Below are positions 22,790 through 63,535 of a stretch of DNA of 64,000 nt, piece after piece. This stretch comes from Octopus vulgaris. Taxonomy: Eukaryota. Location of the stretch: NCBI GenBank assembly GCA_951406725.2, contig OX597820.1, positions 74,896,001 to 74,960,000 of the forward strand. The letters are read 5' to 3'. A model generated the notes under the pieces. It was not told where the DNA came from and did not search any database. It worked only from the letters and a program-made list of their open reading frames with translations. Position numbers and translations under genes: made by a program. The stretch's first letter is position 1; the number at the start of each line of letters is the position of its first letter.

Positions 22790-23021
22790 ATATTTCTTTA
22801 TTGCCCACAAGGGGCTAAACATAGAGGGGACAAACAAGGACAGACAAAGGGATTAAGTTGTTTACATCGACTCCAGTGCGTAACTGGTACTTAATTTATC
22901 GACCCCGTTAGGATGAAAGGCAAAGTCGACCTTGGCGGAATTTGAACTCACAACGTAACGACAGACGAGATACGGCTACGCATTTCGCCCGGCGTGCTAA
23001 CGTTTCTGCCAGCTCGCCGCC
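22790..23021 (-). mobile_element. SINE family B, variant tail (type 2)
   Basis: Tail TATTTCTTTATTGCCCACAAGGGGCTAAACATAGAGGGG next to (TATG)n; intact head. Confidence 0.85.
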
Positions 23022-31399: not shown

Positions 31400-32240
31400 G
31401 GTTTAGAATTGGTACGAGGCAAGCAGTTTCCGGTGAAGGGTTTAATCGATTAAACCCCTCACCTCAGTGTTCAACGGGTACTTATGTTATCGACCACGAA
31501 ACGATGAAAATCAATTTCGACCTCAGCGGAAATTGAACTCAGAACATAAAGAAAGACGAAACACCGCGTGCTAACGTTTCTGCCAGCTCGCCGCCTTAAA
31601 GATGTTTTTTAATATTCTTTTCTACTCAAGGCCTAAAATTTGGAGGGAGGGGGCCAGTCGATTAGATCAACCCCAGTACGCAACAGGTACTTAATTTATC
31701 AACCCCGAAAGGATGAAAGACAAAGTTGACCTCAGAGTATAATGGCAGACGGAATGCCTATTTCTTTACTACCCACAAGGGGCTAAACACAGAGAGGACA
31801 AACAAGTACAGACAAAGGGATTAAATCGATTATATTGACCCCAGTGCATAACTGGTACTTATTTAATCGACCTCGAAAGAATGAAAGGCAAAGTTGACCT
31901 CGGCGGAATTTGAACTCAGAACGTCGCGACGGGTGAAATAACTCTTAGCACTTCGTCCGTTGCGCTACAGTTTCTGCCAGTCGACCTGGGCGGAAATTGA
32001 ATTCAGAACTTAAAGACGTACAAACCGTTGCTAAGCTTTTTACCCGGCGTGCTAACGATTATTTTCTACTATAGGCAGAAGGCCTGAATTTTGGGGGGAG
32101 GAGGCCTGTCGATTCGATCGACCCCAGTACGCAAAGTACTGTCGACCCTGGCAGAATTTGAACTCAGAACATAGCGACGGGCGAAATAGCGCTAAGTACT
32201 TCTTCCGGTGGGCTGCTGTTTCTACTAGCTAGTCGCCTTG
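31400..32240 (-). mobile_element. Cluster of about five SINE family B units
   Basis: Repeated GAACTCAGAAC B boxes; includes a type 1 tail junction at ~31758. Confidence 0.85.
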
Positions 32241-44474: not shown

Positions 44475-45116
44475 GATATACATATATGTACACACACACA
44501 TATATGACATTGTATGTGAGTATGTATGTGAGTGTTCATATGTATATAAGTCTGTGTATATATATTTAGCCGGCGCGTACACACCTTCTCAGGAGACACA
44601 CAGACGTATGATGCCTGATAATAAAAATATAAGGAAATAAATATCAAGGCTCTGGCTGTTTCACTACTATTTTATAGTCATACTATTCTCAACTTGACGC
44701 TAAGTGAGTTAACAAGACTAGATAGTAAACTGTGGAAAATAACGATTATATCAGTAAGCACAGTAAATTCGACTAAGATTATATTTGCCGCCAAACCACA
44801 CAGCTTGATATTTTCTTTAAACAAGAAAAATTATTTAAACTAGAAAAATAAGAATCTGCTGAAGGTGAGAACCGAGCTACTGGAAATACGGCCACGATTG
44901 CAGCTAATAAGGGGCCTCCTCGAAAGCGGTGTCCCAGCATGTTTCATACCCAACGTATGAAAGTAGTAAAAACGTGTTGAATACAAAAATTTACGTTGAT
45001 AAAGGCTAGAAATGAAAAGAATAGCGTCTGATTAATATAGAATAATTACTGACTCTAATGTATCTGTGACGAAGACCCCTATACAGTATATGAATGATAT
45101 TTATGTTATTATAAGA

Positions 45117-45780
45117 CGGTGATCTGGCAGAATCGTTAGCACGACGGGCGAAATGCTTTGCGGTATTTCGTCTGTCGTTACGTTGTGAATTCAAATTCCG
45201 CCGAGGTCGACTTTGCCTTTCATCCTCTCGGGGTGGATAAATTAAGTACCACCTACGCACTGGGGTCGATGTAATCGACTTAATCCGTTTGTCTGTCCTT
45301 GTTTGTCCCCTATATGTTTAGCCCCTTGTGGGCAATAAAGAAATAAGAATGTTTAGCAAGCCAGACGAAATGCTTAGCGGTATCGCGTTTGTCGCTACGT
45401 TCTGAGTTCAAATTCCGTCGAGGTCGACTTCGCCTTTCATCCTTTCGGGGTCGGTAAATTAAGTACCATTTGCGTACTGGGGTCGATCTAACCGACAGGG
45501 TACCACCCCAAACATTTCGGGCCGTGTGCCTAGAGTAGAAAAGGATATTTATGTCATTACAAGGCGGCGAGTTGGCAGCATGTTTAGGAAGCCAGACAAA
45601 ATGCCTAGTGGTATCGCGTTTGTTTTTATGTTCTGAGTTCAAATTCCGCTGTGATCGACTTTGCCTTTCATCCTTTCGGAGTTGATAAATTAAGTACCAG
45701 TTGCGTACTAATCGATCGAATCGATTGGCCGCCGCCCCCAGAATTTCGGGCCTTGTGTCTAGAGTAGAAAAGGATATTTA
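45117..45780 (+). mobile_element. SINE family B cluster (three units, one with a type 2 tail)
   Basis: B boxes near 45190, 45405 and 45635; junction at 45346/45347. Confidence 0.9.
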
Positions 45781-47043
45781 TGTAATTATGAAAGCTTATG
45801 AAAAAAAAAAAAAAGAAGTAAAAACAAGTAAAATCCAAAGAAGCGCAGAGAGAATTTGATATCAGCATCCAAAATATGAACCCGTTTGTTCCTTCTTCCA
45901 TGAATATGTTCAAATGTTATACTTAAATAATATTAAATGCAAAGCAAAATCAGAATAAAATCCACATCTTTGATATAAGTCTTTCTAATTTTAACAGATA
46001 GCCGATAATTTTGAGGTGTGGCAAGGTAATTACATCGACATCTGTATGAGACTGTTAGTTTATTCTATCGACCACGAAAGAATGAAAGGCAAAGTTCACC
46101 TGGTGAGATTTGAACACCTCGCTCCCAGCCTTAATCTTTAACACCGTGAATCTTATCTATATGTAGCTCGTTAATCAAACTGGAAAAAAAAATCGAAAAT
46201 TTTTACTATGAAGAATCTCTGATATACAGCTTAATAAATTTATGAATCAAGATCAAATACGAAAATTAAATAAGCAAGAACTTTAGCAACTTTAGCAGGT
46301 TTCACTAATAATAATAAATGTAAGGACAAACTTCAGAATTAGTTATAAATTATGTGGTTTCTGCAAGAAGACTTTCAATGAAATCCTCAAATGATGGGAA
46401 TAGCGAAGGACCAGTGTTTTAAAGTTCAGGCTATTTTGCTATTGACGGCAACGAAACTTATTTATATATTTACTAGTTTAGATTTTAATGTAACATTATG
46501 TGAAGTCAAGGCATTGAAGACATAGACAATGTATTAATGTTTGGACGGTGGTTTATTTAAATATTCTTGAAATAAAACCAAAGGCAAACGTTTTACATTT
46601 GAGCAGACACTTTAAAGAGGTCTTTAAACAAAGCAAGGCATTTTGTCATCGTTTAAGCTTTTGACTATGAATTGCTCTTATAACATTCATGATAATTTCT
46701 AGCACATTCAAAGCTAAACATATTTGTTTCAAATGTTGGTAGGAGGCCACCAATTTCGGGGAAGGGAATAAATTGATCGATGAAAATGCTCAACTGGTAC
46801 TTAGGCTATCGATCTCGAAATTTAAACTCAGTACGTAAGAAATGCCATTAAGTGGCGTGCCAAGTTATGCCAGCTCGCCGCTTTATTCGAAGCTAATATT
46901 TTGCCGATAACTTGTATGTAACTGAAACTTTATTTTATCGGAGGTAGAAGGAAGATCTGGAACAAATACCGAAAATCATTTTGTTTGTTACTCAAAATAG
47001 TCTATCAATCCAAAATTTTATAGCGAAATAAGAGATGATTTAA

Positions 47044-47324
47044 CCTTCTTGCGACACCCGGGGCGATTGATCGGCCCAAGTAATACAAGTTGTACGAAAT
47101 TTGAGGCCGATCTATCGAACCGATGAAACAAACGTTTTGAAGTGTAATAAGCATATCAAGGGTAGTCTTTCAATAGATATAACATAAAACTATTTAATAT
47201 ATATAGTTTTACATACTAATAAAGTAGTTTTAGGCACTTTATCGATCGTTTCCTACTAAAAAAAAACAAAACAGCTTTGGTCTTTTTGGTTACACATAGT
47301 TAAACATCGTGTGTCTCAAAAGGG
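47044..47324. mobile_element. Possible piggyBac-type MITE
   Basis: TTAA|CCTTCTTGCGACAC ... GTGTCTCAAAAGGG|TTAA: 14-bp TIR with 3 mismatches and TTAA flanks. Confidence 0.5.
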
Positions 47325-48929
47325 TTAAGAGAGAGAGCATATAGAGTTAAACTAATCTCAATATTTAATTTTAATCGGTTAAGAAGGATGATACTGAAAA
47401 TTAACTTCTGCTAGATTAGATCCCAGAACATAAAGATATCTAAAACACTTTCTTAATCGCTTTAGTAAAAATAAGGCAGTGATGTTTGCATAGCTAGTTG
47501 AAAGCCAGTCTACGCGTATTTACCGATATTCAAAGTTTACTGCTTCATAGCGATTTCGAAAGAAAAAGAAAACGAAAAATAATGATATAAAAAAGGAACA
47601 GAAAATAGACCTGAAAATTCTTCCAGATGTTTATTATGGTTCTGGCTGTCTTTATTTTATTTTTTGCTTGTTTTCATTTTAGACGTAGCAGTGGTGTTGA
47701 TGTTAGTGGTGTTTTCAATGGCGGTGTAGAGGAGGATAGAGTGCGAGCGATATTGTTATATGTATATTTAAATATAGTAGTATGGTGAATGAATCCTATC
47801 ACGTATTATTTGTCATTATTGACGATCGGTTTCACGCTGAGACGAGGAATATAAATGTATAGCTTGTCTGAGTCAGAGCCTTCAGGCTAGATAGCTTCCT
47901 ATGAATCATAGTGTTTCAACAGTTGTCGACGTATCTGTTCTTGTCAGTGAAGCCACGAGGAAAAATGTGCACCCAGCTAACTCCTCATTCAAATCTCGCC
48001 GTGAAAGAAAATGCATATTTCGGTAATGATTTGCAATATATCTGTACTTGAAATAAAAGTAAATACAAAAGAAGAGGAAAAAGATTCAAATAAGACAAAA
48101 ATAAAACAGTCTATTTTAATCAAAGAGTAATTATGCAGAAAACAGAATACTGAGGGAAATAAGAAAAGACATAAAAATCAAGCAAATTACAAACTACTAC
48201 AACCACCACTAACACCACCACCTTCAGTACCAGCACCACCACCACCACCATAAGCACCACTATAATACTACTTCAAATTAGAATAATATTTTTGAGAAAA
48301 ATTACGTATATTTTATCAAGGTTCGCATTTCATAACACGCACATGCATGAGTGTATATGAATATGTGTGCGCGTGTGTATGTGTGTGTGTGTGTGTGTAC
48401 TTCATTCATATACAATAAACACTAACTATATATATATGCTTATATATATATATATGTATGTATGTATGTATGTATATATACGCGTATATATATATATATG
48501 TATGTATGTGTGTGTGTGTATGTATTTATGTATATATATGCATATATATATATGAATATATGTATACAGACACACACTGCCATACATATACACATGAATG
48601 GACAACACAAATTATTACACTCAAGATATTCCAGTAAATGAAATAAATGTAATTTACACTACCACATCTGTGTGTTTGTGTGTGTGAGTGCGCACGCGTA
48701 TTTGTGTGTGTGAGTGTGTGTTTGTGTGTGTGTGAACGTGTATCTGTGTGTGTGTGTTTATGTGTGTGTGTGTGTGTGTGCATGAACGTAGGATATGTAT
48801 ATACTCTTTTACTTGTTTCAGTCATTTGACTGTGGCCATGCTGGAGTACCGCCTTTAATATGTGTATATATTTATTCTTTTATCTGTTTCAGTCAATTCA
48901 CTGGGGACATGCTGGAGCACCAATTATAC

Positions 48930-49399: not shown

Positions 49400-51010
49400 T
49401 TAACATTTAGAGTTCGAACCCCACCGAGGTGAACTTTGCCTTTCATTCCTTCGGGGTTGATAAAATAATCTACCATTCAAGTAGTGCGGGCGATGTGAAT
49501 CGATTTGTCCTCTCTCCTCAAAGAAATTTCTGACTTCGAACTCTGCGACGGACCAACGGACCAACGGATCAGGGCGAGTGTTATTCTTTTCCAAACTAGG
49601 CATAAGGTCCGAAATGTTGGGGTATAGGGGTGGAAGTCAATTTGATTAATCCTAGTACCCAACTGGTACTTAATTTATCCACACCGAAAGGATGAAATGC
49701 AAAGTCGACCTCGGCGGATTTTGAAGAATGCAAATTATATTAATTCTTTTCTACTCTAGGCACACGGCTCGAAATTTTGGGGGATCGACCCCAGTACGCA
49801 ACTGGTACTTAATTTATTGACCCCGAAAGGATGAAAGGTAAAGCTGACCTCGGCGGAATTTGAACTCAGAATGTAAAGATAGACGAAATACCTATTTCTT
49901 TACTACTCACCAGGGGTTAAACACAAAGGGGTCAAACAAGGACAGACAAACGGATTAAGTCGATTATATCGACCCCAGTGAGTAACTGCTACATAATTTA
50001 TCGACCCCGGAAGGATTTAAGGCAAAGTCGACATGCGCGGAATTTGAACTCAGAATGTAGCAGCAGACGAAATACCGCTAAGCATTCCGCGCGGCGTGCT
50101 TAACGTTTCTGCCAGCTCGCCGCTTTAGGACGAGTGTTATGATTTTTGTCAGGGAAACCGTGTAACTGAAGCTGTTTATGCCAGGGCTGTGGAGTGGTGG
50201 ATTCCTAGAACTGATAGAGGGTCGGACAAGATAGATCCGCAATATTTGTCCTATTTTTAGGGTGGCCAGCTGGCAGAACCGTTAGCACGCCGGGCGAAAT
50301 GGTTAGCTGTATTTCGTCTGTCTTTATGGTCTGAGTTTAAATTCTACTGAAATCGACTTTGCCTTTCATCCTATCGGGGTCGATAAATTAAGTATCAGTT
50401 GCATACTGAAATCGATCTAATCGACTGTGTACACCCCTACCCCCAAATTTCGGGTCTTGTGCCTAGAGTAGAAAAGAATATTTATCACATTTTTAGGGCA
50501 GCAAACTGGCAGAATTTGTTAGCACGCTGGGCAAAATGCTTAGCGGCATTTCGTCCTTGTTTACGTTTCTAGTTTAGGTCGACTTTAATTTTTTATTCTT
50601 TCGGGATCGATGAAATAAATACCAGTCTAAGTACTGGGATCGATCTAAACGACTAGTCCCCACCTACAAAATTTTAGTCCTTGTGGTTATAGTAGAAAGG
50701 GTATTTATCAAATTTATTTACATTCCGAATTCAGATACCGTGGAAATGAACTTTACTTTCTATCCTTTCGGTGGCGATAATATAGATAAGCCAACAAAGC
50801 GGCGAGCTGGCAGAAAGGTTAGCACGCCAGGCGAAATGCTTTGCGGTATTTCTTTTGCCGCTACGTTCTGAGTTCAAATTCCGCCGAAGTCGACTTTGCC
50901 TTTCATCCTTTTGGGGTTGATAAATTAAGTACCAGTTGCATACTGGGGTCCATTCAATCGACTGGCCCTCTCCCCCAAAATGTCGGGATCTTGTGCTTAG
51001 TGTAGAAAAG
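49400..51010. mobile_element. SINE family B cluster (one +, three -, three to four + units)
   Basis: Conserved B-family motifs; type 1 junction at 49892/49893. Confidence 0.85.
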
Positions 51011-51760: not shown

Positions 51761-52269
51761 AGAAAAAACTTCCCTCTAAATATATATGTTGCAATGATCT
51801 GCAAAAATGATAATCAAATGGCGGAAGTCGATCCGACGAATAAGAAGGTTGAAGGAAAACCTTTATATTCAGTGCCATAATTTTCCTTGGGAGACTTGAG
51901 CAATATGTGGTCTTGCTTTATCTTGTAACAGCAATTACAGTGAGTAATTGACGTCTTTTTACGATTGACCAGAAACAGACAATTAGCCTGTGAACTCGAA
52001 TGCTTCCAATTAACAATGATATTTCTCCACATTTAACTCTTTCGTTTCATTTTAACACTTTATGTTTGGCTATATCTTTGTTTCCATCAACCACAAGAAA
52101 TTGATTCTTTTTTTTGTTCGGTGAAATTCTGGTTTTGGAACTATTACTTCTCTTTGGTTGCCAACCATTGTCGTATCATTGAATGCTTTATAGTTACGCA
52201 TTGGGTTGAACCCTTTTGCTAATTCCTGTGTAGTCTAATTTCGATCTGCCTCCGTTACCTTTTCAATAT

Positions 52270-52765
52270 TTTTCTGATCTAGGAACAAGGCCCGAAATTT
52301 TGCGGGAGGGGCCCAGTCGATTAGATCGATCCCAATATGCAACTGATACTTAATTCATCGGCGGAATTTGAACTCAGAACGTAACGGTTGACGAAATACC
52401 TATTTCTTTACTACCCAAAAGGGGCTAAACACAGAGAGGACAAACAAGGAGAGAGAAACGGATTAAGTCGATTTTATCGACCCCAGTGCGTAACTGGTAC
52501 TTATTTTATCGACCCCGAAAGGATGAAAGGCAAAGTCGACCTCGGCAGAATTTGAACTCAGTACGTAGCGGCAGATGAAATACGGCTAAGCATTTCGCCC
52601 GACGTGCTAACGTTTCTTATTTCTTTATTGCCCACAAGTGGCTAAACATAGACATAGAGGGAACAAACAAGGACAGACAAAGGGATTAAGTCGATTACCT
52701 GGACTCCAGTTCGTAACTGGTACTTAATTTATCGAGGATGAAAGGCAAAGTCGACATTGGTGAAC
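52270..52765 (-). mobile_element. SINE family B trimer with type 1 and type 2 junctions
   Basis: Junctions at 52400/52401 and 52616/52617. Confidence 0.85.
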
Positions 52766-52789
52766 TCTCATTAAACTCTCGAATTCGAT

Positions 52790-59976: not shown

Positions 59977-60398
59977 GTCGTCGTCGTAGTTGACACCGTC
60001 TTTGAAGTTGACATCGTGGTAGTAGTTGACGCCGTTGTCGTAGTTGGGGTCATTGTCGTAATTGACGTCGTACCTGATGTCATCGTCGAGGTTGACGTCG
60101 TTGTCGTAGTTGACGTCGTTGTCGTAGTTGACGTCGTTGTCGTAGTTGACGTCGTTGTCGTAGTTGACGTCTTTGTCGTAGTTGACGTCGTTGTCGTAGA
60201 TGACGTCTTTGTCGTAGTTGACGTCTTTGTCGTAGTTGACGTCATTGTCGTAGTTGACGTTGTTGTCGTAGTTGATGTAGTTGTCGTAGTTGACGTCGTT
60301 GTCGTAGTTGACGTCGTTGTTGTAGTTGACGTCGTTGTCGTAGTTGACGTCTTTGTCGTAGTTGACGTCGTTGTCGTAGTTGATGTAGTTGTCGCAGT
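59977..60398. repeat. 18-bp minisatellite (GTCGTAGTTGACGTCGTT)n, about 23 units
   Basis: Seen directly. Confidence 0.95.
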
Positions 60399-60964
60399 TA
60401 GTTTCAAAGAGAAGCCATGAATGTTTTTAACATAGAAATCTAGATTTACTTAGGGAGACAGCAACTGAGTATCGCCTGAGGAGATACATATAGATCTTCT
60501 TATACAGGTAAATCGTTACATAATTTAATTTAAACTTAACTTTAAGCTCTGTATATACCAGGATCTGTATGTATCGAAACATTTGTAGTGATTAAAAAGC
60601 TGCCTAAACTTACTTACTCATCCTTCTCACTCTTTTACTTTTTACTTTATATATATATAGAGATAGATAGATAGATAGATAGATAGATACGCATGACAGA
60701 GAACATAGGCTTCAAATGATTGATTTTCACGCATAACAGTAAAAAAGAGGTTTTTCACAACTGTGAGTTGTATTTTGCTCAAATAATTTTTTTTTAGATA
60801 CAGCTAACTTCACAGTAAAACATCCTTATATAAAAAAAAGAGAAAAAATGGAACGGAGATTGCCGTGTCTCTCACATACAATAGACATTAGATAAGTGCA
60901 TGTAGTTATAAGTATACATACAGAGATATACATACACTCACACACACACACGACAACAAACTGC

Positions 60965-62764: not shown

Positions 62765-63535
62765 TTAACTGGTACATATCTTCTCGTTTTTATTGACCCC
62801 CGAAAGGATATAGGGTAAAATCGACCTCCACGTAATTTGAAATCACAACATAAAGACGGAAGAAATACAGCTAAAAAGTTTTCTCCATCATACTAACTTC
62901 TCTTATTTCTTTATTGTCCACAAGGGGCTAAACATGGAGAGGACAGACAAGGACAGACAAACGGATTAAGTCGATTACATAGACTCCTGTGCGTAGCTGG
63001 TATTTAATTTATCGACCCCGAAAGGATGAAAGGCAAAGTCGACCTCAGCGGAATTTGAACTCAGAACGTAACGGCAGACAAAATACCTATTTCTTTACTA
63101 GGCACAAGGGGCTAAACACAGAGAGGACAAACAAGGACAGACAAACGGATTAAGTCGATTATATCGACCCAGTGCATAACTGGTACTTACTTAATCGACC
63201 CCGAAAGGACGAAAGGCAAAGTCGACCTCGGCGGAATTTGAACTCAGAACGTAGCGGTAAAAGAAATACCGCTAAGCATTTCACCCAGTGCGCTAACAAT
63301 TCTGCCAGCTCGCCGCCTTCTACACGTTAATATCATTGGTTTCAAATTTTCGCCCACGGCTAAGAATTTCGAGAAAGGTGTAGTCGATTTTATGGACCGC
63401 AGTTTTGAACTGGTATTCATTTGATCGACTACGAATGTATAAAAGGAAAAGTCGGCGGAATTTGAACTCGTAAGGACGTACAAATGCCGCTAAGTACAAT
63501 GTCCAGCGTGCCATCTATTCTGCCTGCTGGCCGCT
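62765..63535 (-). mobile_element. SINE family B cluster (four units) with type 1 and type 2 junctions
   Basis: Junctions at ~62902 and 63087/63088. Confidence 0.85.

Follow-up and report, generated by a model that had tools for sequence, protein, structure and literature searches.

Fixed-site fusions between SINE copies in the Octopus vulgaris genome and how their targets may be chosen

Introduction

At 45.1 kb in a 64,000-nucleotide stretch of the Octopus vulgaris genome (the window), the tail of a short interspersed element (SINE) runs straight into another copy of the same element, entering it at body position 15. How does a retroposed copy come to be joined, to the base, to a fixed internal position of its own family? 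As a rule, the endonuclease is held responsible for where non-LTR retrotransposons insert, and the initial annotation of the window read its fused copies in this way, as two SINE subfamilies, each with its own site, mobilised by a sequence-specific enzyme that cuts the tRNA-derived head. How the 5′ end and the second strand are joined in the L1 group is, to our knowledge, still an open question. The octopus offers tens of thousands of natural events in a single genome, with built-in controls in the form of same-strand and opposite-strand sites, SINE and non-SINE sites, and nested and seamless joins. The matter also bears on repeat annotation, where chimeras of this kind would split one family into many and blur estimates of age.

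Results

The SINE and its fused copies

The SINE has a consensus of 231 bp, with a single head and body that carries several types of tail: the variant tails S and C, and tails of the B type. Positions are numbered on this consensus, in which AGAAAC begins at 15 and GGTATTT at 48. Genome-wide counts cover 2.80 Gb in 227 contigs, whilst the 864-kb sample consists of the window and eighty 10-kb stretches chosen regardless of their SINE content. The element is short, non-coding, dispersed and abundant (50,455 exact S-type and 11,524 exact C-type tails genome-wide), and 45 of 64 full-length solitary copies carry a target duplication, compared with 6% after shuffling. Its head is tRNA-like, with A and B boxes that were judged by eye; ARAGORN found nothing within the 64-kb window, and Rfam nothing at window positions 45000–45900. 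The central stretch resembles what we take to be the CORE domain of the octopus elements OR1 and OR2. Folding of one solitary copy gave z = −0.25, and no special RNA structure is claimed.

The locus at 45.1 kb lies on the plus strand. A 19-bp spacer that looks like, and was scored as, a target duplication (45096–45114) precedes a young SINE unit (45115–45345) with a tRNA-like head and a C-type tail, which differs from the consensus at 13 of 203 positions and whose tail is of L1/Tx1 type by alignment with LINE 3′ ends. This is followed by an older B-tail unit that starts from body position 15 (45346–45543), the presumed target. The spacer, read directly in each case, recurs at 45544–45562 and again at 45773–45791, on either side of a full-length B-tail unit (45563–45772). 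The two B units share nine non-consensus letters, clustered in the 5′ part, and have 15 (45346 unit) and 20 (45563 unit) letters private to each. Because the same spacer stands before, between and after the units and the nine derived letters are common to both B units, the target at this locus was local. The initial annotation had noted this sharing of changes with the neighbour, and the consensus-like state of the variant-tail unit, and both observations hold. B copies often stand in tandem with a target-like spacer between them: after 20 of 139 B-tails comes a short spacer and then a full SINE head, for example at window 45544–45562 and 24546–24529.

All seven tail-to-body junctions reported for the window were found at their places. 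Four lead from an S-tail to position 48, at 31758, 49892, 52400 and 63087, all on the minus strand, and three lead from a C-tail to position 15, at 45346 on the plus strand and at 52617 and 62903 on the minus strand. Two of them belong to simple minus-strand pairs of an S-tail unit and a B unit at position 48, namely 31616–31980 (junction 31759/31758, with a tail of the GGCATTCC variant) and 49745–50123 (junction 49893/49892). The remaining minus-strand junctions lie in two chains: a 5′-short C unit, an S unit from position 15 and a B unit from position 48 at 52268–52778, and an S unit, a C unit from position 48 and an old unit from position 15 at 62767–63317. The order of the S and C types is indeed opposite at 52.3–52.8 kb and 62.8–63.3 kb. 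The earlier set of junctions had left out an eighth variant tail, which belongs to a solitary full-length C-tail copy on the minus strand (22791–23021), lies in non-SINE DNA followed by (TACA)n, and provides an unfused control.

Fused junctions of this kind are real, abundant and genome-wide. As many as 13,973 of the 50,455 exact S-tails run directly into the 11 letters GGTATTTCGTC found at body position 48, and 617 of the 11,524 exact C-tails are followed by AGAAACGTTAGC; both counts lie far above chance, so that the letters after the tails are not random. Among the 78 tails of the 864-kb sample, 32 join position 48 (three of them via a repeated GAAATA) and 10, including one that has an internal deletion, join position 15; one stands before a full SINE head, and 35 (about 45%) lie in non-SINE DNA, at sites that match only in the 3–5 letters after the tail. 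With 42 of 78 tails at two sites of its body, the SINE exceeds the 20% of flanks in one target that serves as the threshold for target-specific elements of the SINEU/Tx1-Mar type (PMC4494074, in part). The junctions are precise to a single base. The proposed pairing of each tail with one site was correct for S-tails, which are found almost exclusively at position 48, but C-tails use both 48 and 15, and a few ordinary B-tails (5 of 139) enter at positions 16–18. The site thus tracks the letters after the tail rather than the type of tail, and the notion of two subfamilies with a site each is not supported.

Younger copies within older ones

If a younger copy had inserted into an older one, the downstream unit should be the older of the two. 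In 46 of 57 pairs the downstream strict-B unit has diverged further than the unit that precedes it (383/4913 versus 235/4987, or 7.8% versus 4.7%; p=3e-7), as the initial annotation had predicted. The CpG decay of these downstream units equals that of solo B copies (39/108 and 52/147, respectively), their likeness to one another is not above that among solo B copies (0.059 versus 0.063), and second units carry several tail types. A single composite master was rejected on these grounds, and the earlier argument against it stands: the downstream units neither form one clade nor share the age of the upstream units.

Nested copies offer a second line of evidence. Genome-wide there are 240 exact nested heads, in which GGTATTTCG is followed within 2–14 bases by a new head. 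Among 30 rows viewed, 22 (21 loci) are S- or C-tail copies within another SINE with the GGTATTTCG stretch duplicated, three are the same event in non-SINE DNA and five are of other kinds. These nested, target-duplicated copies and the 45.1-kb locus, with its spacers and shared alleles, indicate insertion in place, and the view that younger copies had inserted locally was largely right. Unbiased fusions keep their outer duplications at about the rate of solo B copies (10 of 25 and 10 of 27, respectively), below that of solo S/C copies (40 of 64; p=0.06). The mismatch within such duplications does not rise with the divergence of the downstream unit (rho −0.37, n=36), which runs against the in-place model; dating by such mismatches was uninformative. 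No empty allele was seen among the contigs of four public runs at window 44600–48400, where paralogous SINE pieces numbered in the hundreds of thousands and no ortholog spanned the locus.

Seamless joins and the age of the heads

A seamless, homologous 5′ join had been proposed for the 45.1-kb locus, and nearly all fusions do have a single head of intermediate age. In samples drawn without regard to the junction, just 4 of 106 first junctions keep two heads. Head divergence is 0.088 in seamless fusions, compared with 0.059 in solo S/C copies and 0.148 in solo B copies (p=0.002 and 4e-5, leaving out 30 loci chosen for being nested). It does not follow the divergence of the downstream unit (rho 0.11, n=43), and the heads of seamless fusions are without a clean 5′-to-3′ gradient of divergence. 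Upstream, the target letters directly past the junction are almost never retained (0 of 23 at positions 48–62, with the B-diagnostic pair in 1 of 23), and a plain 15-bp duplication hidden within the homologous join was rejected because none of the 23 shares these letters. The data fit a cDNA that anneals to the old head and partly replaces it; they fit composites too.

The latter are the alternative that survives best, although we consider it unlikely that they account for the junctions in general. Ready-made composites could arise from read-through RNAs of many nested loci, or from a reverse transcriptase that switches from B RNA to S or C RNA at shared letters. The mostly young heads agree with this, and composites or template switching would give the same absence of target letters past the junction. 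There is no T4 terminator within the SINE consensus unit, and a recognisable outer duplication surrounds 24 of 48 chains that end in a strict B tail, biased samples included. Composites do exist: at one locus (L187) the fused copy has a 5′ truncation that extends beyond the junction, and a duplication flanks the entire element. They look like a minority, however. Truncated composites with a duplication were seen once where 5.7 were expected (p=0.02), or 3.1 at a stricter cut-off (p=0.19), fused heads are older than solo heads, and in unbiased samples the ageing of outer duplications resembles that in solo B copies. The three matching spacers and the local sharing of alleles at 45.1 kb likewise tell against an imported composite.

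The letters after the tail and the choice of site

In solo copies the target duplications begin with the letters that follow the tail, which fall mostly into GG, TA and AG classes. GGTA is present in the upstream copy of the duplication in 14 of 19 solos, and TAT in 15 of 21, whilst in several other solos the tail-adjacent letters are missing from the target. Our reading is that the RNA probably extends a few letters beyond the tail and that priming takes place where those letters match.

A match of this length does not by itself account for the use of the two body sites. In small samples of ends (29, 12 and 23 for the three sites considered here), position 48 represents 4.9% of GGTAT sites and 24.7% of GGTATTT sites yet receives 16 of 29 GG-class chain ends, and position 15 represents at most 4% of sites yet receives 7 of 12 AG-class ends. 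Microhomology of 4–5 bases alone was therefore rejected as the cause of the enrichment, since both shares exceed the supply of sites. SINE bodies as general hot spots were rejected as well, since the antisense GGTAC site of the same SINE is not enriched (3–5 of 23 ends, against 134 of 807 sites, or 17%). Visibly duplicated insertions at GGTATTTCG are divided 3:22 between non-SINE and SINE DNA, roughly in proportion to a supply of 4:46, so that the excess must lie in the same-strand seamless class. This excess, within samples that are small, points to homology. At four loci (L277, L279, L085 and L256) S-tail copies were seen head-to-head in the body of an opposite-strand SINE, at the GGTAC site, most of them with target duplications.

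LINE relatives of the tail

The last ~40 bases of the SINE tail align with the 3′ ends of LINEs of the L1/Tx1 type, which encode APE and RT, and an RTE partner was dropped after this match had been made. One such family, found at (TATC)n, is young, with two ORFs and an intact ORF2 of 1149 amino acids that contains PF03372, PF00078 and PF13966 (APE, RT and zf-RVT) and has human L1 ORF2p as its best solved relative (E 3e-53). It thus has the two ORFs, the APE and RT domains, the C-terminal zinc motif and the relationship to L1 expected of the Tx1 clade; this domain reading covers the (TATC)n family, the LINE family with the closer tail having been read at its 3′ ends only. A homolog search and cluster look-up with the LINE protein returned no named Tx1 protein. 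Many copies of this (TATC)n LINE, represented at L343:3318-9192 (G000:C3:61573001-61583000), are identical in protein over the searched stretch.

The (TATC)n family has 5,971 exact tails genome-wide, with TATCT next in 26 of 30 viewed, and in 14 truncated copies (TATC)n also lies 5′ of the element. Flanks vary in the family whose tail is closest, among the 100 listed of 191 matches; SINE-like next letters occur in two of these 100, one a SINE and the other a LINE in non-SINE DNA. In one copy of this family, located in non-SINE DNA, a near-exact C-type tail runs into AGAA. In the part of the LINE families sampled, no LINE with such a tail lies at position 48 or 15, and a SINE-targeting LINE may be among the families outside the sample. 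The autonomous partner that had been postulated, with the same tail and the same target, is thus supported as to its tail, which is common to L1/Tx1-type LINEs with target-specific members; the same target was not found in the families sampled. Judged from the tail sequence, the exact partner is likely to be some L1/Tx1-type family that shares it.

Could such a LINE provide an endonuclease that recognises the SINE head and nicks it at positions 15 and 48? The single-base precision of the junctions would be in keeping with such an enzyme, target-specific LINEs do occur in this tail group (TATCT after 26 of 30 tails in one family, and (CT)n, (ATT)n or fixed unique flanks elsewhere), and SINEU/Tx1-Mar provides a precedent (PMC4494074, in part). 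We nevertheless regard it as improbable. The 35 of 78 tails in non-SINE DNA sit at short matches only, GG does not follow any of the 5,971 exact tails of the (TATC)n family genome-wide, and twenty 3′ ends of other zf-RVT LINEs have (CT)n, (ATT)n, fixed unique or varied flanks, with none at the SINE. Moreover, the two sites have no common motif, and C- and B-tails choose between sites by their end letters. The head-cutting enzyme put forward in the initial annotation is probably wrong.

LINE 3′ ends at three loci on different contigs (L358, L359 and L361) share one flank that is not a microsatellite, which suggests another site-specific LINE family.

Arrays of three or more units

Where three or more units form an array, they share 44 of 198 private letters (null 1.6%); the corresponding counts are 6 of 67 for S–S pairs and 19 of 308 for S-to-B pairs (null 2.1%). 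At one locus (L374; G000:C1:4676000-4678300) ten near-identical S units are followed by a B unit that shares two private letters. From this sharing and the near uniformity of the ten-unit array it follows that long arrays grew locally after the first junction. The ten-unit array amounts to a SINE-derived minisatellite. That ordinary nested insertion, later collapse of adjacent heads by recombination and DNA-level duplication could explain the fusions as a whole is very unlikely: nested heads exist and the letters shared within arrays would suit it, but collapse alters the look of a junction and not the number of insertions, so that the excess over non-SINE sites stays unexplained unless priming is homology-driven, and unequal exchange cannot make the first fixed junction.

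Discussion

We think it reasonably probable that the enzyme of an L1/Tx1-type LINE copies the SINE into nicked DNA, and that pairing between the target and the terminal letters of the SINE RNA sets the register. The fixed sites are likely to be owed to this pairing of the RNA end rather than to a site-seeking enzyme. The RNA would end a few letters beyond the tail (GGUAU.., AGAA.. or UAU..), the GGUAU end probably coming from read-through into a downstream SINE body, and a copy at position 48 would in this way give rise to an RNA that fits position 48 of other copies. These end letters would then prime reverse transcription at any match, in SINE or non-SINE DNA alike. Where the target is a SINE on the same strand, the cDNA would be homologous to the upstream head and could anneal to it and replace part of it, giving a seamless join without a duplication and raising the rate of success some tens of times. 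Some fused loci may later be copied whole via read-through, and arrays of three or more units would grow locally. The results point to homology of the RNA and cDNA as the main determinant of SINE target choice. As intact young LINE relatives are present, the model is testable in cells.

A more far-reaching version of the model is offered tentatively, as a possibility that we would not yet call probable. The SINE would be self-homing: it would carry its target address in its own RNA end, having acquired it by read-through into the previous target, and would enter its relatives through flap annealing at a single nick, in the manner of prime editing. Old copies would thereby be renewed with a fresh tail and promoter, at about 100,000 junctions if the 42 in 864 kb are extrapolated to the genome.

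Several described systems share features with the octopus SINE. In the crocodilian SINEU/Tx1-Mar system the LINE shares the Mariner-N4 target and tandem copies sandwich a duplication (Kojima, 2015; PMC4494074, in part). The likeness lies in a SINE biased to another repeat, often in tandem, with machinery of the L1/Tx1 type, whereas the octopus target is the SINE's own superfamily, its joins are mostly seamless and no LINE was seen at the site. Because the sampled LINEs lack the SINE target, we do not class the octopus SINE with SINEU/Tx1-Mar. Kibi and Koshi, of the Tx1 clade, are LINEs that occupy (TC)n and (TTC)n (cited in PMC4494074, in part), and the octopus LINEs with the same kind of tail similarly sit in (TATC)n, (CT)n and (ATT)n; this likeness concerns the LINE relatives, however, the SINE itself using GGTAT, AGAA and TAT sites.

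For the 5′ end, the closest parallel is R2. When R2 RNA carries upstream 28S sequence, the cDNA anneals upstream and gives precise 5′ junctions, a minority of them tandem-duplicated (PMC3774820, in part), and homologous annealing of this kind would explain the precise 5′ joins in the octopus. R2 is autonomous, however, with a site in the rDNA that is set by its protein, whereas in the octopus the homology is that of the SINE's own head. For the 3′ end, terminal RNA letters constrain the start of priming in RTE1_LA/AfroSINE and other LINEs, and a priming microhomology of 1–2 bases is discussed for animals (PMC6007223, in part); their ends are short tandem repeats, in contrast to the octopus end, which copies an internal SINE site. 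Squamate SINE-derived satellites (PMC10702118, in part) are likewise tandem arrays of SINE parts, although the octopus units start at fixed body positions and end at the tail. The octopus CORE-SINEs OR1 and OR2 (PMC4824008 and PMC4758252, in part) also combine a shared head and body with different tails, a likeness at the level of their descriptions.

By analogy, the octopus SINE appears to work like SINEU/Tx1-Mar with the 5′ annealing of R2 added, as a variant of target-biased retroposition. The octopus repeat annotation of 2026 counts 900 recently active SINE families, and the word 'nested' is absent from its main text (PMC13282606, in part). Among the titles and abstract openings listed in literature searches, none mentions a SINE joined to its own family at fixed sites.

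Other repeats were noted beside the SINE and its LINE relatives. At L373 (G000:C8:9604100-9605900), and also on C1 near 142.95 Mb, a tandem repeat of ~1,674 bp combines an open frame of 528 codons or more with a tail of the LINE type; 13 matches are listed on C8. Within the window, an 18-bp tandem repeat of ~24 copies occupies 59977–60399.
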